UHGV virus genome: UHGV-0038492
Source: a virus
Length of the DNA stretch: 64,000 bases
Reading direction: 5' to 3' (one strand)
Made by a program: the position numbers and the translations under genes. The notes below the pieces were generated by a model. It searched no databases. It was not told the DNA's origin and was given only the letters and a program-made list of their open reading frames with translations. The stretch's first letter is position 1. Each line of letters opens with the position of its first letter. Shown here one piece after another: positions 34,710-59,360 of this stretch.

Positions 34710-37379
34710 TTAGAGAGTTTCATCGGTGTTGTCGTCTGTACCGGTATCCGTCTCGTCCGTGCCCTCAGTTGAAACTTCTTCTTCCGTTGTCGTATCGGTT
34801 TCCGTCGTTTCATCATCGGTCATGTCCAAGTCTTCATCACCGCCCAGATCGTCGCCACCAAAGTCGTTGCCCCCGCCGAAGTTATTGGCGTCTTCAGGAT
34901 TCAAATCAGCCGCTTTTGCTATCGTCTGAACTTTACCGGTCGCACGTTTTGCTAACTGAATCAGCGTCTTCGATGCTGCTGCAATTTCATCAGAAATCAT
35001 CTTGACGTTTTCACCACGTTTATCTTCATCGTAGATCAAATCAAACAGATCGGTTTCGATGCCCTGATTACGTAGCCAGTTGCGCGCGTAGAAGGTCTTA
35101 ACCATCGTCTTGAGGTCATCAGGTGACATTTCAATACCTTCGTTCTGAAGCATATTAGCAATGTCGTCCGTGACCACCAGATCTGCAAGTTTCTCGATAA
35201 ATTCATAGCGTTTATCGAAGAGATCAGCTTGAGATGCTGTTGCAGAAGTATCAGGCGGCGGCAAGGTGACCTTCATACCGTTTATAAACTTCGCCATATA
35301 CTCTGACGTTTGTTTTGTCATCTCTTCGCTAGTTACATTCGGATTCTGCTCACGGATATACTCAACGATAATACGGATGAGTTCTGCTTGCAGTTTCGGT
35401 GAAGCTTGCAGACTGTTTGTAACGTAGCGCGTAAGCGGGGTTGAGAGGATTTCCTGTTTCTTCACAATCTGTTGAGTAACCAACAGCGATTTAGAATAAA
35501 TCTGAGAAGCAAACTCCAGGTTCTCCGGGGTAAGTACAAGGTCAGGATCAACACACGCGATGTGACATGTACGGCGTAACAGGTTCTCGTCAATTTGTTG
35601 ATCAGGAACTTTATACTCCGGCGTGGTATCAGACACAGATACTTTGTGGCTGGCGTAGTAATCGTTACCCGTTACGTTAAAGGCAATCCCCGCGTTAGCC
35701 CCCATTGACCAGGCGTCGTTGATATCACCCCACATCGGCAGGCGACGATTGTAGGAATTAAGGATATCTGATTTAACTTGGTCAACAGTTTTTTGACCGT
35801 TTGCATCATCTGGTGACAGCTCAATGTCGTACTGCATGTGACGTGCCGAGTTCAGTACAGATGAGTTCATCGTTGCGAACAGCAGCGCCATCCTGACAGT
35901 AGAGATAATAAAGGAGCGCTCAGTAATAGAAACCCCGATACCGTCTTCGTTAAAGTCCGTTGCAAAATAGCACAAGTTATTAACCGGAATGTAAACCACC
36001 TGAGTATGACGTTTTGCGAGATGCCGCGCTAACAGAATACGACCGAATGTTTCGGTAATATTCATGCTGATTTCTGCGCCACCTAGTGCCTGACTTAATG
36101 CGCGTGCAAATTCGTTTTCAGCGATTTCACCACAACGTGTACTTAAACGGTTGGCGATTTCCGGGGTAATACGAGAAGTGTTCCCTAAGCCCAGATTAGA
36201 ACGGTTAATGATGCTGTCCGTCATCCCGTCGTTATTCAGGTAGTTCATAAAGTTCGCATCGCCGTACAGCGAGGAGCGAGCATTGATGAAGTTACCCATG
36301 TCATCTACGATGGTCAGATAACCGATAGGGTTACGAACGTCATCGCCAATTACCAGTGGCAGCGTTGACTCTGCGGGCAGTAAACGTTCGATGTATTCGA
36401 TTTTGTTATTCTCATCCATTGAGATAATAGGAATATCACCGTACGTTTGTGTTTTCGGTGTTGACTTATACGCCTCGTTTAAATCACCCAAGTTAATGAA
36501 CCCTTTTTCAGCAGCGTCACGCTGACGGTCATCGAAAGATTGATTAGGGTCGAACGGACTGCCACCGTTTGGTGTAGACGGCTTTTCATATGCGGCTTGC
36601 TCTAATTGCCCGTACAATCCCGTACGTGCGTTCTCATGCGCAATACGACGATACAAATCCGGCAGCATGGTAATGCGCGGGTTATCGGTAATCGTGATTT
36701 CCATCTGGAATTTATCCGAGAACATCGAATCGTGCTTACCGAAATCGATTTTCAATGTTTGTGGACCAGTAACGGCTCCGCGTAAACGGTTGAGAATTGA
36801 TTCTACACCAACTCGCTGCCCTTCTTTCGGCGCATTAATAGGCCCGAGGATACCAAGCTGTTGTTCGAAGAACGCCGTTTGAGAACGACGAATAGATTCA
36901 GTAGCGACCTTTGTATTCAGACCGAATAATTGGTCGAAGCCGGTATCCGAGATTATCATCACTGGACTTGCGCCTTTGGTTTTTAACGCATCGTAAATCC
37001 ACTGATATAATTTCTTAGGTAGCTGACGAATGTTATCGTGATAATCACGGGTCGGTGTCAGTAGCGCGTTACGCAGATCAATGGGGATGTCCGCGAAGTT
37101 GTCGTAAATCAACGTCGTGTTGATTAAGTCTTTTGTTGATAGCAGGCTCGAAGTTGCAATAGTAACGATTGTTTCGAGTTCAGGTAACGCATCAAAGATA
37201 CGTTCCGCATTTTTGATAGTACGAATACGTGAACTCGCAATTGCCGTGAGTTCTTGACGTGTTGGCGTAGAACCACCCTCGCTACGCGTACCGCGTTGTT
37301 GCTGAGGTGCTGGGCCCGTAGTTTTACGAAGAATTGCAGCTACGGCGGGGTCGCCCGTTAATTTACTAATATCGTCCAT
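34710..37379 (-). CDS. large virion protein, candidate portal protein (889 aa) with acidic C-terminal tail
   Basis: Long minus-strand ORF ~100 kDa with D/E/T-rich C-terminus; lies six genes from the capsid gene, as I recall for phiKZ-like phages; functional call is inference only. Confidence 0.4.
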   Translation of the reverse strand: MDDISKLTGDPAVAAILRKTTGPAPQQQRGTRSEGGSTPTRQELTAIASSRIRTIKNAERIFDALPELETIVTIATSSLLSTKDLINTTLIYDNFADIPIDLRNALLTPTRDYHDNIRQLPKKLYQWIYDALKTKGASPVMIISDTGFDQLFGLNTKVATESIRRSQTAFFEQQLGILGPINAPKEGQRVGVESILNRLRGAVTGPQTLKIDFGKHDSMFSDKFQMEITITDNPRITMLPDLYRRIAHENARTGLYGQLEQAAYEKPSTPNGGSPFDPNQSFDDRQRDAAEKGFINLGDLNEAYKSTPKTQTYGDIPIISMDENNKIEYIERLLPAESTLPLVIGDDVRNPIGYLTIVDDMGNFINARSSLYGDANFMNYLNNDGMTDSIINRSNLGLGNTSRITPEIANRLSTRCGEIAENEFARALSQALGGAEISMNITETFGRILLARHLAKRHTQVVYIPVNNLCYFATDFNEDGIGVSITERSFIISTVRMALLFATMNSSVLNSARHMQYDIELSPDDANGQKTVDQVKSDILNSYNRRLPMWGDINDAWSMGANAGIAFNVTGNDYYASHKVSVSDTTPEYKVPDQQIDENLLRRTCHIACVDPDLVLTPENLEFASQIYSKSLLVTQQIVKKQEILSTPLTRYVTNSLQASPKLQAELIRIIVEYIREQNPNVTSEEMTKQTSEYMAKFINGMKVTLPPPDTSATASQADLFDKRYEFIEKLADLVVTDDIANMLQNEGIEMSPDDLKTMVKTFYARNWLRNQGIETDLFDLIYDEDKRGENVKMISDEIAAASKTLIQLAKRATGKVQTIAKAADLNPEDANNFGGGNDFGGDDLGGDEDLDMTDDETTETDTTTEEEVSTEGTDETDTGTDDNTDETL

Positions 37380-39581: not shown

Positions 39582-40109
39582 ATGGCATATCGCGTCGACT
39601 TAACGAAAACTCCGAAACAAATTCTGGTAGATCGTATTAACTACGTTTTCGGGGTATCCTATACCACTGATAACATCGATTTTAACGATAAAGGTGTGCA
39701 ACCACTGACGAAAGACGAAGCCCGTCGTTACGGACTGGAATCGAAAGTGGCCGCTGACTTTAAAAACGGTGTTACAGGGAACCAGGAATTCATCTTAACC
39801 CGTGTTGACCTGGCAACGTTCTTAGCTGACGAACCGGTTACGGTACCGAAAGGCGAAGTAACCAGCAGCCAAGAACTGGCAGACTATATCGTTGCCCAGA
39901 CCGGTATTGATTTGACCCAAGACGACATTATGATCGAGCCTATCAGTGAGGAACTCGATTCTTATGATGTTCGCTTAGTCCCGAATCACTTATCTTTTAA
40001 AGGAACGATTCCGGTCGTATTTACTGACCCCACACCACGCACGTTGGCGTCTCTCGTGACGAAACTTGCGCTGGACGGGTTCCGCCCTGGAGAATTAATC
40101 AATGTCTAA
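39582..40109 (+). CDS. hypothetical protein (175 aa)
   Basis: ATG 39582 after stop of upstream gene (track start 39555 is TTG and overlaps). Confidence 0.55.
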   Translation: MAYRVDLTKTPKQILVDRINYVFGVSYTTDNIDFNDKGVQPLTKDEARRYGLESKVAADFKNGVTGNQEFILTRVDLATFLADEPVTVPKGEVTSSQELADYIVAQTGIDLTQDDIMIEPISEELDSYDVRLVPNHLSFKGTIPVVFTDPTPRTLASLVTKLALDGFRPGELINV

Positions 40110-40989
40110 TGTCAAAGTTTACGACGGTAAACTCTCGACGGTAACACTTAATGCGATGCGTCTGGCTACCGCATTAATTACCGGTGCCGATGTGCAATAC
40201 CCACAGAAGTCCACACTGAATGAGTTTTATAAACTCATGCAAACCCCAGTGCCGGACGGTAAAGCACGTCCCCATTTGCAGTACATGGCGATTGGTAACC
40301 GTGGCCATATGGTCGACACATCAGACGTTGTTGCTGATGTTGTTCCTGTAGCTAAAGAACCTATCGCGTCCGGGATGTTTTCACGCGTTCCGTTTGTCCT
40401 GCGTACTAAAGACAACGATTTGTCTGATGAACAGCGTAAGAACTACGCTTTCCGTACTCTGGAAACCATCAACAAACGTGAGTATTGGGCGTACTACTTA
40501 AAACGCATTGACATGCGTGCAGTAAAAACTACCGACTACGACATTAAGCGTGAGAACGGTGTTGAAACTGTAGAAGACTTTGTCTATACGGATACTGAAC
40601 TGAACCCGGTACCGAAAGTGTTGCCGGACTACGATTACGATGATGACGGTACCGTTGCAATTCCTGACGGCCGTTATGTGGAATCAGGTGCAGACCTGGT
40701 TATTCCGTGGACGGACTTTGACGTTCAGGAGTACATGAACGTGACCAGCATTATGCGCGGTAGCCCTCGTAGTTCGATTATCTCTGAACTGGCACTGTGC
40801 TCTGGCTTAGACCAGGTAACGTCCGGTGACTCTGCTACAGGTTCGAAGTTCAGCTACACTGAAGCTATCGGTGTACAAGCCCTGTATTACATTTCGATGT
40901 TTACTAACCTGGCGCAGACGAACGATAAACTGTCACTGACAATCCGTATCGGTCAACCTGCACCGTTCTTCTTAGGGACAGCGAATTAA
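40102..40989 (+). CDS. hypothetical protein (295 aa)
   Basis: ORF overlapping the upstream gene by 8 nt. Confidence 0.6.
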   Translation: MSNVKVYDGKLSTVTLNAMRLATALITGADVQYPQKSTLNEFYKLMQTPVPDGKARPHLQYMAIGNRGHMVDTSDVVADVVPVAKEPIASGMFSRVPFVLRTKDNDLSDEQRKNYAFRTLETINKREYWAYYLKRIDMRAVKTTDYDIKRENGVETVEDFVYTDTELNPVPKVLPDYDYDDDGTVAIPDGRYVESGADLVIPWTDFDVQEYMNVTSIMRGSPRSSIISELALCSGLDQVTSGDSATGSKFSYTEAIGVQALYYISMFTNLAQTNDKLSLTIRIGQPAPFFLGTAN

Positions 40990-41633
40990 TGTTGATTCCT
41001 GAGCCGAGACTTCCCGATAAAATGGTCAGGATCGCGGCGATAGACCCCGGTACGAGCCATCTCGGGATGGCGGTGCTGGATTGGGAATATGGCAGCGACC
41101 AAGCCGAAGTGGTGTGGGCTGATACCATGCACGTATTAGACCCAACACATCCAAGTGCGTTTGCAGAGTGTGTCGGTAAACGCGACGATCGCTTAGTAAA
41201 ACTCGAAGCGTGCTACCGTGAGTTTCTTCGGATTGCGCGTCCGACGTTTGTTGCAACAGAAACGCCGTTTATGCGGCGGGCAAAACTCTCCGCGTATGAG
41301 TCTGGTGTAGAGTTACAGCTGATGTTAAGACGGGCGTTATGGGACGTGTTTCCAGAGAAAGTGTTACACGGGTTCAATCCGATTATTGTAAAATCATTCG
41401 TCGGTGTGGAAGCGAAAGGAACGGACAAAACAGATATGTTTCGTGCCGTAACGAAGTTGTATCGCGACCACGCGTTGTTTGACATTACAACGTTGGATGA
41501 GCACAGTATCGATGCCGTGGCGGTGGGGAATATCTTTGTCAGGGTAAACCTGTTAAACTTGAATAGTCTCCTACCGCCAAAACAAAAGTCTGCTAAGACA
41601 GCAAAACGGCGGAGAAGACGTCGGAGGAAATAG
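40989..41633 (+). CDS. RuvC-like Holliday junction resolvase with poly-Arg C-terminal tail
   Basis: IAAIDPGTSHLGMAVLD (first catalytic Asp), VATETPF (Glu), HSIDAVAVGN (Asp cluster) in RuvC order; C-terminus KRRRRRRRK; start may instead be ATG 41022. Confidence 0.65.
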   Translation: MLIPEPRLPDKMVRIAAIDPGTSHLGMAVLDWEYGSDQAEVVWADTMHVLDPTHPSAFAECVGKRDDRLVKLEACYREFLRIARPTFVATETPFMRRAKLSAYESGVELQLMLRRALWDVFPEKVLHGFNPIIVKSFVGVEAKGTDKTDMFRAVTKLYRDHALFDITTLDEHSIDAVAVGNIFVRVNLLNLNSLLPPKQKSAKTAKRRRRRRRK

Positions 41634-41635
41634 CG

Positions 41636-42214
41636 ATGTCGCAACCAACACAAGACGTGTCAGCCGCAATTCTTGACATTCTTATCCAAGCAGGGAACAG
41701 AAAGTTAAGTAAAGAGCAGTCCGAAGAACTGTCTAAGATTCTCAAAGACAACTTCGGTGATGATGTCTCTGTAGACGTAACGCGGTCGGGTACAAAGATT
41801 CTGTCGGAGCTACGCCCAACGCTTCTTGAGAACATTGGAAAGATGGCGGAAAACTTTCAGCAGCAAGCCACAAATGCTGTAGAGAGTTTAGGTGACGAAG
41901 TAAGCAAAGAAACGATGTTGACACTGTGGCCGAAACTTGCCGGTGCACAGAAGTTCATTATTGTTCTGCTTGCACTCGCCACTGTGGTCGTGACAGGCTT
42001 CTTAGCGTACGACACGCATCAGAACTATCCAACAGACAGTATGGAAGTGTTGTTTGTATCCTTACTTCCGCTGTTCGGACTGGTAGTATTTGCAACGTGG
42101 CCGATTAAAACGTTGGCTTACAAGTCGTTGGAGATTGCTACCAAAGTTGTCGAGAAGAAACTTGAGAAATCAGGTCAGGTCGTCGCGAAGACGGAAACAA
42201 AGACAACGAAATAA
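41636..42214 (+). CDS. membrane protein (192 aa), two predicted transmembrane helices
   Basis: RBS ggagg; hydrophobic segments FIIVLLALATVVVTGFLAY and VLFVSLLPLFGLVVFATW. Confidence 0.55.
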   Translation: MSQPTQDVSAAILDILIQAGNRKLSKEQSEELSKILKDNFGDDVSVDVTRSGTKILSELRPTLLENIGKMAENFQQQATNAVESLGDEVSKETMLTLWPKLAGAQKFIIVLLALATVVVTGFLAYDTHQNYPTDSMEVLFVSLLPLFGLVVFATWPIKTLAYKSLEIATKVVEKKLEKSGQVVAKTETKTTK

Positions 42215-42216
42215 AA

Positions 42217-42258
42217 CCAACCTCTACCTTCGGGTAGAGGTTTTCTTCTTTTTATTTT
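42217..42258 (+). terminator. Rho-independent terminator
   Basis: Stem cctctacc / ggtagagg with loop ttcg, then ttttcttctttttatttt. Confidence 0.8.
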
Positions 42259-42302: not shown

Positions 42303-42956
42303 ATGGAACCACTACGTTTAATGACCAGAACGCTACTGATTCCTATCTGGGAATTGAAGCTTGCCCCATTGTCTGCCTCTAATGGGGAGGTCATTGATTT
42401 TATTAAAGACGAAGAATTTGTGTTGACGGCTTTCCAGGAGACGCTGCATCGTTATTATAATGCAGTGCCTTTATCTGGCGGATTAGATTGCCCTGGTGTA
42501 GAAGGGAGTACGTCTGCGTTAATCGCAGAGTATTTAGAACAGAAAGGAATCGGGGTTGGGAAAGGCCGGGTTTATGTGGACGCCGATAAACTGAGGAGTT
42601 ACCAGATTGAGCTGACGTTTCAGATAAGAAAATTACTTACCCGCTACGGTCTTTTCTCGATTAACTGTAAGGTTGATGACGTACGGATGTTAGACCACGG
42701 TTTTACCACTGTCCTCAAAACCTGTCGCGGTAAAAGATTCGTACAGTTTGCGTGGTGGGTACCAGTATTGCGTGGTGAGAGAAAAACGGTGGAGGGGTTG
42801 TACGGCTGGGCGCTATGGAGCGAAGTTCCAGTAAATAAACTCGATGCAGTTATTCCAAAGCACCGAAACGTTCCGCTTAGCAGTTTATTTACTTCCGGCG
42901 AGAACACTACGTGGGCTGAATTCGTTAATAACGTTATGTCAATTGGGGAACAATAA
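42303..42956 (+). CDS. hypothetical protein (217 aa)
   Basis: RBS aaggagac before ATG 42303. Confidence 0.6.
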   Translation: MEPLRLMTRTLLIPIWELKLAPLSASNGEVIDFIKDEEFVLTAFQETLHRYYNAVPLSGGLDCPGVEGSTSALIAEYLEQKGIGVGKGRVYVDADKLRSYQIELTFQIRKLLTRYGLFSINCKVDDVRMLDHGFTTVLKTCRGKRFVQFAWWVPVLRGERKTVEGLYGWALWSEVPVNKLDAVIPKHRNVPLSSLFTSGENTTWAEFVNNVMSIGEQ

Positions 42957-43432
42957 TGCAGCAATTAGATATTACCGAAGACAAAATCTCCGCTAAATTT
43001 CCACAATTACGTGAATACATCAAAGACTTAAATTCGATACGCGAAACACCGGTCCGCATTACCTTAGCGGTAGAAGATGACATTACACACGGTATTGCGA
43101 TTTGGGAACCGGGCAATCTTATCTATTTGGTGGTGGCGGAAGGTTCTCGACGTTTCGGTGTGGGTTCGTTCTTATTGCAGTACGTTCAGTTGAATTCCGA
43201 TCGTCAAATGGTGACGTGTCGTGTCCACCCTTCGAACATTGACGGCCTGTGTTTCTTTTCGAAAAAAGGCTACCAGATTGACCGTTGGTATATCGCCAGC
43301 GACTCTCGTCGGTATTTTCGTATGACGAACGGTAACGTTGTTTCGTCATACGCCCCGCCGGAAGAAGGATATTTGGTGGATTTTATCGAAAACACGCCCA
43401 TCTTTCTCTCTGTTGCGGATAAAATTTATTAA
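42956..43432 (+). CDS. GNAT-family N-acetyltransferase (158 aa)
   Basis: Acetyl-CoA-binding-like motif VVAEGSRRFGVGSFLLQYV, then a GNAT-like C-terminal region; coupled start (TAATG). Confidence 0.6.
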   Translation: MQQLDITEDKISAKFPQLREYIKDLNSIRETPVRITLAVEDDITHGIAIWEPGNLIYLVVAEGSRRFGVGSFLLQYVQLNSDRQMVTCRVHPSNIDGLCFFSKKGYQIDRWYIASDSRRYFRMTNGNVVSSYAPPEEGYLVDFIENTPIFLSVADKIY

Positions 43433-43925: not shown

Positions 43926-44314
43926 TGAAACGTTTTATTACTCCATTTCTAATGTTACTTTCGTTTTCTGTATTAGCTGATTTTAAACCTTACGATATCA
44001 GTCGTTACGAACCCGCTGTCCCTGGCGATAAACCGGTTGTGTTTAAAGCAGACGACCAACCCGTCACTGCGGTTCAAAACGATGAGTTTGCAGTGGTGAA
44101 TTACGGCAAAACGGACTTATGTCCTGCGGGTGGATTTTATCTGGTGAACATCAAACGTCGGACTTACCAGTTTGTTGATCCGGGTAGCTGCTCTGCAATG
44201 GTTAAGGTGACGTTAGAAACCGTACCTTACACGAATAAAAACATTAATATACAACGTTTAACCTTTTATGCGGGTGATGAAATCACAGCACGTTATCCGT
44301 TATACGGGTATTAG
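43925..44314 (+). CDS. secreted or periplasmic protein with N-terminal signal peptide (129 aa)
   Basis: N-terminus MKRFITPFLMLLSFSVLADF resembles a Sec signal peptide; RBS gaggtaa. Confidence 0.55.
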   Translation: MKRFITPFLMLLSFSVLADFKPYDISRYEPAVPGDKPVVFKADDQPVTAVQNDEFAVVNYGKTDLCPAGGFYLVNIKRRTYQFVDPGSCSAMVKVTLETVPYTNKNINIQRLTFYAGDEITARYPLYGY

Positions 44315-44337
44315 TGATTAGCCCCCACGGAGTTCGT

Positions 44338-44976
44338 ATGTCTTTTGTAATTGATTTCGACGTTGGCCACAGACAGAACTTACTTAATCTCGTTAGTTAT
44401 TGTAACAGTGACAGTGTACGGAAAAAGCTTTCGGCTGAAAAGGTAGACGTTACGCTCGTCGGTGCCCCAACACCGGAAGGACGCTATAAGGTAAAGTTAA
44501 CGAACCGTAACGACATAAACGATGCGGTACTGATTACCTACACAAAGCTTCAACTGAACGACTTCCTTGAGATTCCTGCCAAGTATCTGGATTGGTTTGA
44601 TTTCGAAAACGGTCAACCTAAGAACTACGATACGTGGGCAGCTTCCGCTAAAGTCGCTGTAGAGAAAATGTGCCAAGACCGAGGTATGGTGATATCTCGC
44701 GCTTGGGACACCGGTTCACAGTGTCACATTGAGTTTGACGAGTCTATCGAACGGTATGTGGTTGTCTACGAGTGCGACTCTTTTATTTATAGTGCGAGAA
44801 ACCGATTCATCTTACCTCTACACTTAGGGCAGGTGATCAACGACACGACATTAGACGGTCTTGATTACAATAACGAACTGAACAAGAAACCATTGGCGGA
44901 TTTGGACGGTGAGTTAGAAGTGTGGATGGGTCAGGCGTTGGTTGAGACAGTCGTCTTAAGCGGCCTGGAAGTATAA
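44338..44976 (+). CDS. hypothetical protein (212 aa)
   Basis: ATG 44338 with RBS ggag 6 nt upstream (track start 44314 is GTG). Confidence 0.55.
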   Translation: MSFVIDFDVGHRQNLLNLVSYCNSDSVRKKLSAEKVDVTLVGAPTPEGRYKVKLTNRNDINDAVLITYTKLQLNDFLEIPAKYLDWFDFENGQPKNYDTWAASAKVAVEKMCQDRGMVISRAWDTGSQCHIEFDESIERYVVVYECDSFIYSARNRFILPLHLGQVINDTTLDGLDYNNELNKKPLADLDGELEVWMGQALVETVVLSGLEV

Positions 44977-45030: not shown

Positions 45031-45059
45031 CATTATCGACGGTCTTTATGGAGGTGACC

Positions 45060-45614
45060 ATGAAAGACTATAGAATTGCAATCATCGGGTCTCGAGAAAC
45101 ACCGGAAGACGTTATGCAGGAAATGTTAGACACGTTACGGGAAGGGTTTCGAATCTTACGAAAGAAAGGCTACACGATTACCACCCGTTCTGGCGGGTGT
45201 TATAAAGGCCCAGACCAGCTTCAGTTTATGATAGCACGTACCGAGGACGTTAAGAGCGTTTGTTATCTGCCGGATGAAAAGAAAATGTGGTTAGGGAAAA
45301 TACACCCTAAGGTAGAGTTTCGTTATATCCCACAAGACGTTCAGTACCGAGCGATAGTTGCTTCACTTCACCCAAATCCAGATAAGCTCTCACCGATTGC
45401 CTGGGCGCTACACGGCCGTAATCTGAATATCATCGCAGGTGACTGCTTAGACGAACCGGTAGACGCAGTCTATTACTTTAGCGACCACGACAAACACGGA
45501 AACGCAAAAGGTGGTACTGCGATGGGTGTAAAATACGCGAAGTCAATCGACGTTCCTTGTTACTACCATACCGTCGATCGGGATAAGTGGTTGGAAAGTC
45601 TTCGTTTATTATGA
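45060..45614 (+). CDS. SLOG/DprA-like Rossmann-fold protein, putative (184 aa)
   Basis: N-terminal strand motif RIAIIGSRE and C-terminal glycine motif KGGTAMGV resemble the SMF/DprA-LOG superfamily pattern; RBS ggagg 5 nt before ATG 45060. Confidence 0.35.
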   Translation: MKDYRIAIIGSRETPEDVMQEMLDTLREGFRILRKKGYTITTRSGGCYKGPDQLQFMIARTEDVKSVCYLPDEKKMWLGKIHPKVEFRYIPQDVQYRAIVASLHPNPDKLSPIAWALHGRNLNIIAGDCLDEPVDAVYYFSDHDKHGNAKGGTAMGVKYAKSIDVPCYYHTVDRDKWLESLRLL

Positions 45615-45737: not shown

Positions 45738-46871
45738 ATGTCAACGTTAGATAGCGACTTAGAAGTGCTTTGTGACGATTACGACCGACTCGTAGCGTTA
45801 GAATCCATTGGAGTAAAAGACAATTATCCGGCTATCGTTGCTATCCGTAAACGTTGGCTTTTGGATGATGTGGTTGTTGCGTCAGAGTCTGCGGCCATGA
45901 TGCACCGTGCACAGTTTTTGTCAGACACGGAACCTGATAAAGGGATAGGCAAAGCGGCGGCACGACTCACCGGACGTGCGGTTCGTGGCGTAAGTCGGGT
46001 AGCAGGACGTGCTGCCAGTGCAGGTGCAAAAGCATCGGCGAACTTCGCAGGTAAACATTCCAAACAACTTGCTTTACGTTTTGTGGATTTTGCTGAGGCT
46101 GCGGGTAAAGAAGTCATTAAGGAATTAAAAGAAGCGACGTCTAAAGCGACGACCTTAGAGCGCAAACTGCAAAAGTTAAATGCACGTCTAAATTTAATCG
46201 GTGACAAAGACACCTTAAAACCGGTTGACTGCGACACGGGAAGCTGGACGACCAAAGTTTGTTTAGAAGACAAACCTAACGTAAAAGCGTGTATTGAGTT
46301 CAGTAAGAACCTGAACGCAATGGATGCGATGGTCAACGAGTATACCGTTAAAACGCGCACCATTATCGGTAAGAGCAAGAAAGTTACTGAGAGTGGCTTG
46401 GAGAAAGTAGGTCGCTCAACGAACTGGGCGATTAAACGTAGTGCAGGGCTGTTCGGTATTATCGATCCGTTTAAAACGGTGAAAGCGTATCCGTGGCCAG
46501 GTAACGTGGTGGTCGTTGAACACGACAACGGTAAGATTGAGTGGGCGATTGCCCGTGATGGTGATTTTGGCCACTCAATCAAATCTCTGAACTTACACGA
46601 AATCGGTTCGGCTCTCGAAGCCGTTGAAAAAATTATCCGAGCTTTACGTCAGCGTGGTACGAAGCGACGTAGCGTTGGTTATACCGGTATTTACGATGAA
46701 GTTCAGCGAATGAAAAAAGAGCTGAAGTCGTTAGACGGTCGTGAGTTACGCGATGCTACCGTTCGGTATAAGAACGCACTGCGTTTAGAAGATGCGTTTA
46801 CTACCTCGTTAGTGCGTGTTGCGGAAGGCTTACTGGAATGGTGCAGGTTGTCGCTGATTGAGGTTAAATAA
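45738..46871 (+). CDS. hypothetical protein (377 aa)
   Basis: Long ORF; Ala/Arg-rich low-complexity stretch near residue 80. Confidence 0.6.
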   Translation: MSTLDSDLEVLCDDYDRLVALESIGVKDNYPAIVAIRKRWLLDDVVVASESAAMMHRAQFLSDTEPDKGIGKAAARLTGRAVRGVSRVAGRAASAGAKASANFAGKHSKQLALRFVDFAEAAGKEVIKELKEATSKATTLERKLQKLNARLNLIGDKDTLKPVDCDTGSWTTKVCLEDKPNVKACIEFSKNLNAMDAMVNEYTVKTRTIIGKSKKVTESGLEKVGRSTNWAIKRSAGLFGIIDPFKTVKAYPWPGNVVVVEHDNGKIEWAIARDGDFGHSIKSLNLHEIGSALEAVEKIIRALRQRGTKRRSVGYTGIYDEVQRMKKELKSLDGRELRDATVRYKNALRLEDAFTTSLVRVAEGLLEWCRLSLIEVK

Positions 46872-47338
46872 TGCGTATTACTATTATTCTCAAACCCGAC
46901 AGTAAATACGGAAAGTTATACGGCGACCAGGTACTCAAACTGCACAACATGTTGTTCGCAGAAGAGAAAGTGCGTATTAGTCAGTTAACTGGACGTGACA
47001 CGTTCAACCCCATCGAACGTTTAGAAGAGATTTGGCCTCAAGACTATCTCTGTGCGTGTGCGGTGGGTGACAACGAACAGCTTCTGGGATTTATGACGTT
47101 CTCATTGGGTTCTTGCTCAAAAGACACGTTTGTTTACATCGGGAATTACTATGTGATTCCTGAAGCACGTTCTCAAGGGGTAGGGCGTGCGCTTATGGAC
47201 AAAGTCCGTGAATACGGAAAGTCCAAAGGTTGTGGTTGGATGAGTCTGGATGTGTTAGACAACAACGTTAAAGCTATCTCCTTGTATGAGAAAATGGGAT
47301 TCCGTACCGAATGCAGGGAAATGATAAAGGAAATCTAA
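46871..47338 (+). CDS. GNAT-family N-acetyltransferase (155 aa)
   Basis: Classic motif A IPEARSQGVGRALMDKV and C-terminal LYEKMGF; coupled start (TAATG). Confidence 0.75.
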   Translation: MRITIILKPDSKYGKLYGDQVLKLHNMLFAEEKVRISQLTGRDTFNPIERLEEIWPQDYLCACAVGDNEQLLGFMTFSLGSCSKDTFVYIGNYYVIPEARSQGVGRALMDKVREYGKSKGCGWMSLDVLDNNVKAISLYEKMGFRTECREMIKEI

Positions 47339-48912: not shown

Positions 48913-49008
48913 TCCTAAAATTTATTACAACCAATAGCTATTATGTGAACGCCGGTATGGAATAAAGAAGTATCGGTTTAAATTTTTGTGCGTAAAGGTA
49001 AAACGATA

Positions 49009-49632
49009 ATGCTTAAGACAGTGTCTATTGATGGCCCTGACTTTTCTGGGAAATCGACGTTGTGCAAAATAGTAAAAGGTATGCTGGAATCTGCGGGGTT
49101 AAAGGTCTGCATCCGTAATCACCCTACGACGGAGACCGAAGCGGGTATCCGCGCACGCAGTTTAGTCGTTCAGTCCGCAGCAAAAGCAAAAATTGCCGAA
49201 GCGATGTGCGACGATTTCCTTCACACGTTAGACCATGTTGTTGACGATTACGATGTTGTTATTTTCGACAGGTTCTGTCCCTCTACAATCGTTTACCAGG
49301 GTGTCGACGGTAAAGACGAAGTTTTCCGACGTAAGCTAACGCGTCATTTCCACGCACCAGATTTGTACGTTTGGACGGACGTGGATTACGACGGCGCAGT
49401 AGCACGCTTTAAGAAACGGGTAGAAGAACAAGGTAAGAATTGGGACGACGAGGTTCTTACCGTTAAGTATTTAAAAGACAACCAAAGTTGGGAAGCGTTA
49501 CGTGACCACTACCGCTTTGCCCACCACATCCTCACTGAAGGCGGTTGTCTGCACCATTTATTACCCGTGAAGCAAGACGACGATTACCGTTTGAAAGCGG
49601 CTGAAATCGTTGCTTGTATTTTAGAGAATTAA
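49009..49632 (+). CDS. tmk: thymidylate kinase-like nucleoside monophosphate kinase
   Basis: P-loop IDGPDFSGKST and DR...YQG motif (VIFDRFCPSTIVYQG) in Tmk order; start set at ATG 49009 with RBS aaagg. Confidence 0.75.
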   Translation: MLKTVSIDGPDFSGKSTLCKIVKGMLESAGLKVCIRNHPTTETEAGIRARSLVVQSAAKAKIAEAMCDDFLHTLDHVVDDYDVVIFDRFCPSTIVYQGVDGKDEVFRRKLTRHFHAPDLYVWTDVDYDGAVARFKKRVEEQGKNWDDEVLTVKYLKDNQSWEALRDHYRFAHHILTEGGCLHHLLPVKQDDDYRLKAAEIVACILEN

Positions 49633-58436: not shown

Positions 58437-58967
58437 GTGATAGCACGACTTGTGGGTTGGTTTAAGCAACGTCGTGCAAAGGCGGTCGAATGGCCGCCTA
58501 TTACGCATGACGAGAAAGTGGCTCTTTTTTTGGGGTATAACAAAGACTTGGGGAGATTAGGCGAGTTAATGCACTTAACGGAACGCCAGGTTTTTGCTAA
58601 GATTTCGAGCAGCGAGTTGCGTAAAGAAGTAATTCCCCACCTATCCTTTTTAGGGCAGGTTTATGCAAAGACGACAGAGGAATTTTTATCAACCCAAGGT
58701 AGCGAACGGCCACATATTCGGTTTTCCGTCGTAGGTGAACCTGATACGGTAGGTGAAATCGATTTTAAGATGCTGTATCGCAGAATAAAAGATGATGGGT
58801 TTATACATGTTAAACGATTATCAGAAACTTCTGTGGTGATTTATCATCGCACTGATCAGGATTTGTTAGGGTGTGTTATAAAGCTATCAAATTTACATAG
58901 TTTTTACGTTGATTTACTTACGGACTTTTATCCAGAACCTTGGTGCTTTATAGATGAAAATAAATGA
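58437..58967 (+). CDS. hypothetical protein (176 aa), GTG start
   Basis: GTG 58437 with RBS gagga 9 nt upstream. Confidence 0.5.
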   Translation: MIARLVGWFKQRRAKAVEWPPITHDEKVALFLGYNKDLGRLGELMHLTERQVFAKISSSELRKEVIPHLSFLGQVYAKTTEEFLSTQGSERPHIRFSVVGEPDTVGEIDFKMLYRRIKDDGFIHVKRLSETSVVIYHRTDQDLLGCVIKLSNLHSFYVDLLTDFYPEPWCFIDENK

Positions 58968-59166
58968 CGGATATATCATTTCAGCAATCGTTTCAACTGC
59001 GTTGATTGTAGCGATGTTGATGTTCTACGTTAAGACGTCTGACGAATCACGTAGAGACTCCCTTTATCGTGAATGTATGTCAGGCACTACTGTAGATAGC
59101 CCACGTTACGCTGAATTAGTAATGGCGTGTACGGAATACGCTAATCGAATGGGAGGAGGGAAATGA
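58954..59166 (+). CDS. small membrane/secreted protein (70 aa)
   Basis: N-terminal hydrophobic segment IISAIVSTALIVAMLMFYV, then LYRECM...ACTEY; sequence-related to the next ORF. Confidence 0.45.
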   Translation: MKINDGYIISAIVSTALIVAMLMFYVKTSDESRRDSLYRECMSGTTVDSPRYAELVMACTEYANRMGGGK

Positions 59167-59360
59167 AAATTTGGTTGCCGATTGTAGTTTTTATCGTTAT
59201 TGCAGGGGCTTTAGCGAATGCCGAGTACGACTCTCGTACTTTAGAAACGAAACGTGAATTGTACCAGGACTGTATAAAGGATTATACACCGGGCACAGAA
59301 CTTCATGCGCAAGCTGTAAAAAGCTGTGCGCTGATGGCTGAATCGCAGACTCGTTCCTAA
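59163..59360 (+). CDS. small secreted protein with signal peptide (65 aa)
   Basis: Strong RBS ggaggagg; N-terminus MKIWLPIVVFIVIAGALANA (AxA cleavage-like), then LYQDCI...SCALM; related to previous ORF. Confidence 0.5.
   Translation: MKIWLPIVVFIVIAGALANAEYDSRTLETKRELYQDCIKDYTPGTELHAQAVKSCALMAESQTRS

Follow-up and report, generated by a model that had tools for sequence, protein, structure and literature searches.

A putative RuvC-family junction nuclease with a polybasic C-terminal tail, and its two-helix membrane-protein neighbour, in a jumbo phage genome

Introduction

T4 endonuclease VII (gp49) and T7 endonuclease I remove branches from replicated, recombined phage DNA concatemers before or during packaging. 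RuvC-like resolvases are found in most jumbo phages, where they occur without RuvB (Iyer et al. 2021, PMC7824862). The subject of this study is a RuvC-like gene, open reading frame (ORF) A, together with the gene that directly follows it, ORF B, in the virus genome UHGV-0038492, from which one strand of 64,000 nucleotides (the window) was analysed. The relatives of this virus, which are of the Asesino and SPN3US type, are nucleus-forming jumbo phages (PMC11724907).

40989-41633, plus strand: ORF A, 214 amino acids (aa), RuvC-family structure-specific endonuclease, putative Holliday junction resolvase
41636-42214, plus strand: ORF B, 192 aa, predicted inner-membrane protein

The explanation that accounts best for both genes, to which we assign a probability of roughly 0.6, is that ORF A is a jumbo-phage RuvC-family nuclease for junctions or branches that carries a DNA-binding tail, and that ORF B is a separate product co-translated with it. 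It is well supported that ORF A is the expected orthologue of a known resolvase that is near-universal among the phiKZ- and SPN3US-like (chimalliviral) jumbo phages. The gene itself represents nothing new, as RuvB-less RuvC-like resolvases have already been described and close homologues are annotated, several GenBank records labelling them RuvC-like or Holliday junction resolvase. The new element is small and concerns the tail, which follows a clade-wide pattern, is carried by two DNA enzymes in a 222-kb genome and is absent from both phiKZ-like counterparts. No paper was found in the literature on phiKZ gp140, on SPN3US gp85 or gp86, or on the basic tail of phage RuvC-like enzymes.

Results and Discussion

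RuvC-like core of ORF A

ORF A matched PHROG 159 (RuvC-like Holliday junction resolvase) with an E-value of 9.1e-39 and 134 bits, positions 76-287 of the profile covering residues 1-210 of the protein. Thermus thermophilus RuvC was matched both in a single-sequence phmmer search (E 0.004) and by a profile of 38 ORF A homologues (E 1.4e-4), and with this profile residues 14-182 aligned with RuvC of Deinococcus radiodurans. The AlphaFold (AF2) model of ORF A had a predicted local distance difference test score (pLDDT) of 88.4 and a predicted template modelling score (pTM) of 0.85. When the model was searched against the PDB with Foldseek, bacterial RuvC structures occupied the first 12 ranks (E 4e-10 to 3e-8) and gave template modelling scores (TM-scores) of 0.72-0.80 normalised to target length. 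Lower-ranked matches were lactococcal phage RuvC, the poxvirus resolvase and chloroplast MOC1, weak matches were seen to IscB/IsrB and to terminase nuclease domains, and among predicted viral structures (BFVD) the best matches were phage resolvases.

A preliminary description of the locus, made from the letters of the window without database searches, had proposed a RuvC-like resolvase with clear catalytic motifs. The family, profile and fold evidence bears out this call, and the motifs are real:

41043-41045, plus strand: codon of D19 in the IDPG motif, the first catalytic carboxylate, invariant in 38 homologues
41259-41270, plus strand: codons of E91-T-P-F94, comprising the catalytic Glu and the aromatic residue three positions later, all four invariant in 38 homologues
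41496-41513, plus strand: codons of D170-E-H172-S-I-D175, comprising the C-terminal catalytic His and Asp in the last helix; D170, E171, H172 and D175 invariant in 38 homologues

D19 aligns with the Asp of the RuvC IDPG motif (PDB 6s16, 7w8d), ETPF aligns with EEQF of T. thermophilus RuvC such that F94 lies opposite its Phe, and DEHSID aligns with nnHaaDA of D. radiodurans RuvC; the DEHxxD motif is found in most of 148 representatives of homologue clusters. In Escherichia coli RuvC, the aromatic residue three positions past the catalytic Glu forms the wedge that contacts the junction. The catalytic residues of ORF A do align with the RuvC active site in the profile alignment, which the preliminary description had proposed as the check on its call, and the RuvC assignment therefore stands.

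Compared with bacterial RuvC (E. coli, T. thermophilus and D. radiodurans; PDB 1hjr, 4ep4/6s16, 7w8d), ORF A likewise has an RNase H-like fold, with D/E/H/D as the catalytic residues, an aromatic residue following the catalytic Glu and a last helix that bears two of the catalytic residues, but the identity is only about 20%, the scores lie far below the curated family thresholds, and ORF A has insertions around residues 48-62 as well as a 26-residue extension with a charge of +12. A longer disordered C-terminal tail has also been reported for D. radiodurans RuvC (PMC9228767). The ORF A gene differs at 8 nucleotides from its counterpart in a 98%-identical relative, and 7 of these changes are synonymous, in line with purifying selection on ORF A.

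A tblastn search with ORF A returned 220 phage records (Erwinia, Salmonella, Pseudomonas, Vibrio, Serratia, Klebsiella and Ralstonia phages), and the homologues include PhiPA3 gp159 (= phiKZ gp140), 201phi2-1 gp225, EL gp108 and RSL2. The core (residues 1-188), searched against 1.84 billion cluster representatives, gave 588 matches at E <=0.001. SPN3US gp85 and Asesino gp101 are orthologues of ORF A with 78-82% identity, and phiKZ gp140 and its equivalents named above are orthologues as well, hhalign linking the SPN3US-like and phiKZ-like RuvC sets with a probability of 99.8%. The two groups differ in that the phiKZ-like and EL proteins end 10-15 residues past the catalytic helix, without a polybasic tail, whereas the SPN3US-like genes encode such a tail and have ORF B as the next gene. 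The gene upstream of ORF A is a virion gene:

40102-40989, plus strand: gene for a virion structural protein (DUF7208) that is homologous to SPN3US gp84 and phiKZ gp139

This gene matched Pfam DUF7208 (E 1e-100) and PHROG 3315, and its TAA stop codon overlaps the ATG of ORF A by 1 base. The DUF7208/gp139 virion gene also precedes the RuvC-like gene in PhiPA3, 201phi2-1, PA1C, Noxifer, Phabio and metagenome contigs; EL is an exception, with gp107 located between the DUF7208 virion gene and the RuvC-like gene gp108. In a comparative study, RusA was stated to displace RuvC in phiKZ-like phages (PMC7824862). Contrary to this statement, the phiKZ gp140 homologues PhiPA3 gp159 (L003 2992-3555) and 201phi2-1 gp225 (L004 2998-3561) are clearly RuvC-like and carry DEHxxD.

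ORF A lies in a tightly packed, translationally coupled string of genes that also includes virion-protein genes and is divergent from the portal gene. If it works as T4 endonuclease VII and T7 endonuclease I do, a dimer of ORF A would act on replicated, recombined phage DNA. Family and context suggest that it could cut Holliday junctions and other branches, rendering the concatemer packageable, and the tail may raise DNA affinity and aid junction finding in an enzyme that works without RuvAB. ORF B would be co-translated with ORF A, and the co-location of the two genes most likely reflects operon organisation rather than a joint mechanism. The T4 and T7 enzymes would have the same job as ORF A and their genes likewise lie among structural and packaging genes, but their folds are unrelated to that of ORF A.

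Composition and distribution of the C-terminal tail

The extension of ORF A begins immediately past the helix that carries H172 and D175, and consists of two parts, a hydrophobic motif and a polybasic tail:

41553-41630, plus strand: C-terminal extension, residues 189-214 (LNLNSLLPPKQKSAKTAKRRRRRRRK), with the LLNLNSLLPP motif and a polybasic tail that is predicted to be disordered
41604-41630, plus strand: K-R7-K run (K206, R207-R213, K214), with ORF A ending in ...KTAKRRRRRRRK

The run contains seven Arg within nine consecutive basic residues. The label octa-arginine in the preliminary description was thus off by one, R207-R213 being seven residues, although the string printed there was itself correct. 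K-R7-K is the sole run of at least six K/R in the real genes of the window (about 70 genes, 19.6 k residues). The net charge is +12 for the extension and -4 for the core. Residues 201-214 have a pLDDT of about 55 in the structure model, which predicts that the tail is disordered.

The first search gave 50 full-length homologues, with identities reaching down to about 40%. In every one of them 8-12 of the last 15 residues are K/R, and these tails come after the conserved hydrophobic LLNLNSLLPP motif or a variant of it. Among the homologues the composition of the tail is kept and the exact sequence is not. As the K-R7-K run is conserved in homologues, it is not due to chance, and the combination of low pLDDT and conserved composition is what would be expected for a functional disordered region.

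For a wider survey, K/R were counted in the last 20 residues of the 148 cluster representatives (clustering at 50% identity), with at least 9 classed as strongly basic and 6-8 as intermediate. Thirteen representatives were strongly basic and 5 were intermediate, most of these 18 being among the closest relatives, and the remaining 130, which finish 10-25 residues past DEHxxD, had no such tail. A Vibrio phage homologue with 35% identity carries a lysine-rich version, and the tail is absent from the RuvC-like homologues of PhiPA3, 201phi2-1, PA1C, Noxifer, Phabio, EL and FBKp24. The tail had been singled out as unusual, which is right in so far as the phiKZ-like homologues lack it; it is, however, conserved throughout the SPN3US/Asesino-like branch and sister lineages and is not a peculiarity of this gene. 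By this distribution, the tail is a lineage-specific add-on and a clade-wide feature.

A second protein with a tail of this kind was found when the whole genome of the 98%-identical relative was scanned, a complete circular record of 221,873 bp with 243 ORFs and 68,780 residues. Two of the 243 ORFs had a polybasic tract, namely the RuvC-like protein and a DNA helicase of superfamily 2 (SF2):

L021 19843-21552, minus strand: SF2 DNA helicase gene, homologue of phiKZ gp075 and PhiPA3 gp068, in the related genome, about 5.8 kb beyond the left end of the window

The helicase has 569 aa, matches PHROG 16 (E 3e-51) and has the C-terminus RKGFKGIPRRRKRRR; its gene adjoins the gene for an RNA polymerase beta subunit. 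The polybasic tail of the helicase is kept in Asesino gp53, Caitlin gp46, Derbicus gp38 and SaP7 and is absent from PhiPA3 gp068. Paired presence or absence of the resolvase and helicase tails is thus seen in two clades only. DNA polymerase, RNase H and other proteins of the 98%-identical genome have no polybasic tail.

Since both tail-bearing proteins act on DNA, a DNA-binding arm is favoured, and the tail is most likely a non-specific electrostatic arm of this type, as judged from its charge and from the nature of its two carrier proteins. Non-specific binding to DNA or RNA, which had been suggested at the outset along with localisation, remains the best reading of the tail and is strengthened by the tail of the helicase. 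If the tail merely adds DNA affinity, it would represent a neat but ordinary case of a disordered basic arm on a nuclease.

Several points weigh against a junction nuclease with a DNA-binding arm. A Pfam search with ORF A gave no usable match, including to PF02075, although one homologue (P0055) has a precomputed PF02075 match, and the NCBIfam RuvC model (NF000711) scored 15.7 bits against a cutoff of 163; because of these sub-threshold scores ORF A is placed in a divergent phage branch of RuvC-like enzymes and is not regarded as an equivalog of the cellular protein. The resolvase role ascribed to the jumbo-phage subfamily derives from family and context, the link to packaging comes from gene context and the analogy with T4 and T7, and the proposed DNA binding of the tail comes from its charge and the type of its carrier proteins. 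A tail common to two enzymes would fit shared docking or targeting equally well. Furthermore, as the phiKZ-like, EL and FBKp24 homologues have no tail, the tail is dispensable for core activity.

The adjacent membrane protein

ORF B starts 2 bases past the stop codon of ORF A and ends shortly before a terminator-like structure. The following features were identified in and around it:

41623-41627, plus strand: GGAGG Shine-Dalgarno sequence for ORF B, within the last Arg codons of ORF A and 8 nucleotides (nt) 5' of the ORF B ATG
41951-42010, plus strand: transmembrane helix 1 of ORF B (about residues 106-125), maximum of 2.57 in a 19-residue Kyte-Doolittle window
42041-42103, plus strand: transmembrane helix 2 of ORF B (about residues 136-156), Kyte-Doolittle maximum 2.15
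42219-42252, strand not assigned: intrinsic-terminator-like hairpin with a 10-bp stem and a 4-nt loop at 42219-42242, followed by a T-rich run

The hairpin, which was scored on both strands, lies 3' of ORF B (stop codon 42212-42214). Hydropathy, together with the hairpin and the T-rich run, confirms that a two-helix membrane protein lies next to ORF A and ends at a terminator, as had been described. The N-terminal approximately 100 residues of ORF B have a net negative charge, the loop between the helices is acidic (about 10 residues, charge -2) and the 34 C-terminal residues have a net charge of +4. This arrangement fits a two-helix membrane hairpin with both termini inside and a predicted helical, cytoplasmic N-terminal domain of about 100 aa.

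ORF B matched PHROG 8722, a family with no assigned function (E 1.5e-73), and a Pfam search with it gave no usable match. A match to YfbV/DUF412 in NCBIfam was weak, covered the membrane-helix region only and was treated as compositional. The single-sequence AlphaFold model of ORF B, with a pLDDT of 54 and a pTM of 0.29, was too poor for use. A first search for homologues was dominated by more than 120 near-identical copies, and the search with the positional analogue of ORF B from the Vibrio phage found 5 proteins only. ORF B occurs in 64 phage records, all of the SPN3US-like clade, and lies directly after the RuvC-like gene in every record inspected.

The last codons of ORF A (CGG AGG AAA TAG) contain the GGAGG, and the string CGGAGGAAATAGCG-ATG at this junction recurs without change in Asesino and SPN3US and nearly so in Kwan. 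Within 41604-41638, the seven tail Arg are encoded by CGG (three), AGA (two), AGG (one) and, in a single case, CGT; in the genes of this phage CGT makes up 62% of Arg codons and CGG, AGA and AGG together about 17%. The pairing of the resolvase gene with a membrane protein, to which attention had been drawn, is real, conserved and translationally coupled, but it does not extend to all tail-bearing homologues, as distant ones have another neighbour. One metagenome contig (L018) has a two-helix protein of the ORF B build after a tail-bearing RuvC-like gene, and two other lineages do not have it.

An unlikely explanation of ORF B is that it is the holin of this clade, or a holin-like protein of lysis timing, and the counterpart of phiKZ gp142, in which case the pairing of the RuvC-like gene with ORF B would be a relic of an order in which a lysis cassette followed RuvC. 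The lysis cassette of phiKZ has been experimentally defined and comprises the i-spanin gp141, the o-spanin gp141.1, the holin gp142, the regulator gp143 and the endolysin gp144 (PMC12894885). In phiKZ-like phages this cassette lies directly 3' of the RuvC-like gene, with gp142 two genes after it. Both gp142, a class III holin (PMC12894885), and ORF B are small membrane proteins in which the N-terminal domain is helical, cytoplasmic and 75-100 residues long, and both are encoded just downstream of the RuvC-like gene; the large cytoplasmic N-terminal domain, membrane helices and basic C-terminus of ORF B are gp142-like; the combination of membrane helices with a basic C-terminus, which ORF B does have, is however not specific to holins. 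Profile-profile matches were collinear and better than controls. In hhalign comparisons of shallow alignments, P was 0.011 for the ORF B family against the gp142 family, 0.0039 for the Vibrio-phage analogue family against the gp142 family and 0.012 for the Vibrio-phage analogue family against the ORF B family, and controls gave P values of 0.1-0.9.

These P values are nonetheless weak and would fail multiple-test correction, such that the similarity is suggestive and not significant, and the structure model, with its pLDDT of 54, cannot be used to decide the matter. ORF B further differs from gp142 in having two membrane helices instead of one and in the absence of adjacent spanin, regulator and endolysin genes. 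No endolysin or spanin was found near ORF B, the neighbours being acetyltransferases or proteins without assigned function; the 220-aa protein at 44314-44976, checked as an endolysin, matched nothing in Pfam or NCBIfam. A GH108 lysozyme is encoded about 36 kb away in the 98%-identical genome. About 145 kb away in that genome is the gene for an SLT transglycosylase, which has a membrane helix at its N-terminus, and next to it a better holin candidate is encoded, a two-helix protein of 159 aa. We therefore regard ORF B as a conserved membrane protein that is translationally coupled to ORF A and for which a holin-like function is unlikely.

ORF C was considered as a lysis regulator similar to phiKZ gp143 and was rejected, as there was no profile similarity (P 0.3). 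Four likely lysis genes were noted in the related genome, outside the window (L023 15948-16427 and 16997-17710; L020 35123-35713 and 33248-33727); they encode the SLT transglycosylase, the 159-aa protein beside it, in which the two membrane helices are N-terminal, the GH108 lysozyme, and another 159-aa protein with a lipoprotein-like signal (…LASC). In 201phi2-1 (gp226, L004 3574-4032), PhiPA3, PA1C and Phabio, the annotation 'virion structural protein' has been given to homologues of the i-spanin and holin of the phiKZ type. In 201phi2-1 this annotation is based on mass spectrometry, and in phiKZ the proteins have been shown to be lysis proteins.

Alternative explanations for the tail and the nuclease

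The tail, perhaps together with the LLNLNSLLPP motif, could also be a signal for docking or targeting and not an arm that binds DNA, and might serve import into or retention in the phage nucleus, or joint recruitment with the SF2 helicase, either as a pair for branch migration and resolution or at the packaging vertex. The tail does resemble a classical basic localisation signal, the conserved hydrophobic motif lies ahead of it, and the only two proteins of the genome that carry it are both DNA enzymes, whose tails covary between the SPN3US-like clade and PhiPA3. This covariation, however, comprises two clades only, and DNA binding is a simpler explanation for basic tails on DNA enzymes. A linear targeting signal would be expected on all proteins that share a destination, but the tail was found on 2 of the 243 ORFs of the complete related genome, and DNA polymerase and RNase H, which would be expected in the nucleus, have none. 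In addition, import into the phage nucleus has been reported to rely on surface patches and not on terminal signals (2026 review, PMC13282480). We therefore consider targeting or docking improbable, and the localisation role that had been raised initially, at least as a general signal, is disfavoured. Were the tail to mediate co-recruitment or localisation, it would bear on the organisation of DNA processing and on protein sorting in nucleus-forming phages. The question of what the tail does is directly testable with the amber-mutant genetics of SPN3US, and Asesino has been used for localisation work.

A job other than junction resolution for ORF A, such as degradation of host DNA or processing of RNA or R-loops, with the tail providing general affinity for nucleic acids, is suggested by the strong divergence of its sequence from cellular RuvC, by the wide reuse of RuvC folds (to which the weak IscB/IsrB and terminase nuclease matches belong) and by the annotation of the Serratia phage Kodama homologue as a 'ribonuclease'. 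Such a job appears decidedly improbable. The best structural matches are by a wide margin true dimeric RuvC resolvases, F94, the aromatic residue after the catalytic Glu that is typical of junction-resolving RuvC, is invariant, and the gene lies among virion-protein genes.

A further and still more speculative proposal, for which the chances seem slim, is that the hydrophobic motif and the poly-Arg/Lys tail form a transferable module shared by the resolvase and the gp075-type helicase in the SPN3US/Asesino-like branch, which would co-recruit a pair of enzymes that replaces RuvAB-RuvC, or dock both at the nuclear shell or the packaging site. Were this so, the module would be the first known linear sorting or assembly signal in the phage nucleus system.

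Finally, it is very improbable that the amino acids of the tail are largely a by-product of nucleotide selection for a purine-rich, Shine-Dalgarno-bearing stretch that serves coupled translation of ORF B: the position of the GGAGG, which lies within the final Arg codons and 8 nt ahead of the ORF B start, the nucleotide-level conservation of the 14-nt junction in Asesino, SPN3US and Kwan and the rare codons at six of the seven tail Arg would fit this, but the basic region spans at least 20 residues, far beyond what a ribosome-binding site needs, the L018 contig keeps the tail though its next gene starts 168 nt downstream, another metagenome contig (L019) keeps it with the Shine-Dalgarno sequence past the stop codon and a different, 78-aa soluble protein as neighbour (a soluble neighbour of this kind is also found on the tail-bearing metagenome contig L017), and the helicase bears the same type of tail in another context, so that, on the basis of these three contigs, a ribosome-binding-site origin could account for the final two or three codons at most and was otherwise rejected.

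Genomic context and occurrence

The hairpin at 42219-42252 closes an operon that begins at 37379 and extends to 42214, consisting of three virion-protein genes, ORF A and ORF B. The portal gene is divergent from this operon:

34710-37379, minus strand: portal gene, homologue of SPN3US gp81

There is no close match to the region among deposited phages, the nearest being Erwinia phage Asesino with about 74% DNA identity. The gene order at the locus is that of Asesino gp98-104 and of SPN3US gp82-88. In SPN3US virions, gp82, gp83 and gp84 have been detected by mass spectrometry, and gp85 and gp86, the homologues of ORF A and ORF B, were not detected in the virion proteome. Packaging of either product in the virion was therefore rejected for SPN3US.

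Just downstream of ORF B, two GNAT acetyltransferase genes, a DprA-like recombination-mediator gene and a thymidylate kinase gene (42956-43432, 46871-47338, 45048-45614 and 48988-49632) alternate with head-protein genes. At 58954-59166 and 59163-59360 there are two overlapping small genes, encoding proteins of 70 and 65 aa without a family match, each of which has a single hydrophobic helix at the N-terminus and a short soluble part that contains Cys.

Phages nearly identical to this one are present in bacterial assemblies. The 98%-identical phage is deposited under the label 'plasmid' with an E. coli isolate from human urine (NZ_CP173450.1; L016, L020-L024; 221,873 bp, complete and circular), and an Enterobacter ludwigii from a gull carries the phage as a 222,441-bp 'plasmid' (NZ_CP134650.1). 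More than 100 near-identical variants of ORF B were found on contigs of 220-250 kb labelled as Salmonella (many serovars), E. coli, Shigella and Enterobacter. That a chimallivirus-type jumbo phage turns up in the assemblies of hundreds of isolates suggests that it has a carrier state or a plasmid-like lifestyle, or else that contamination is recurrent.

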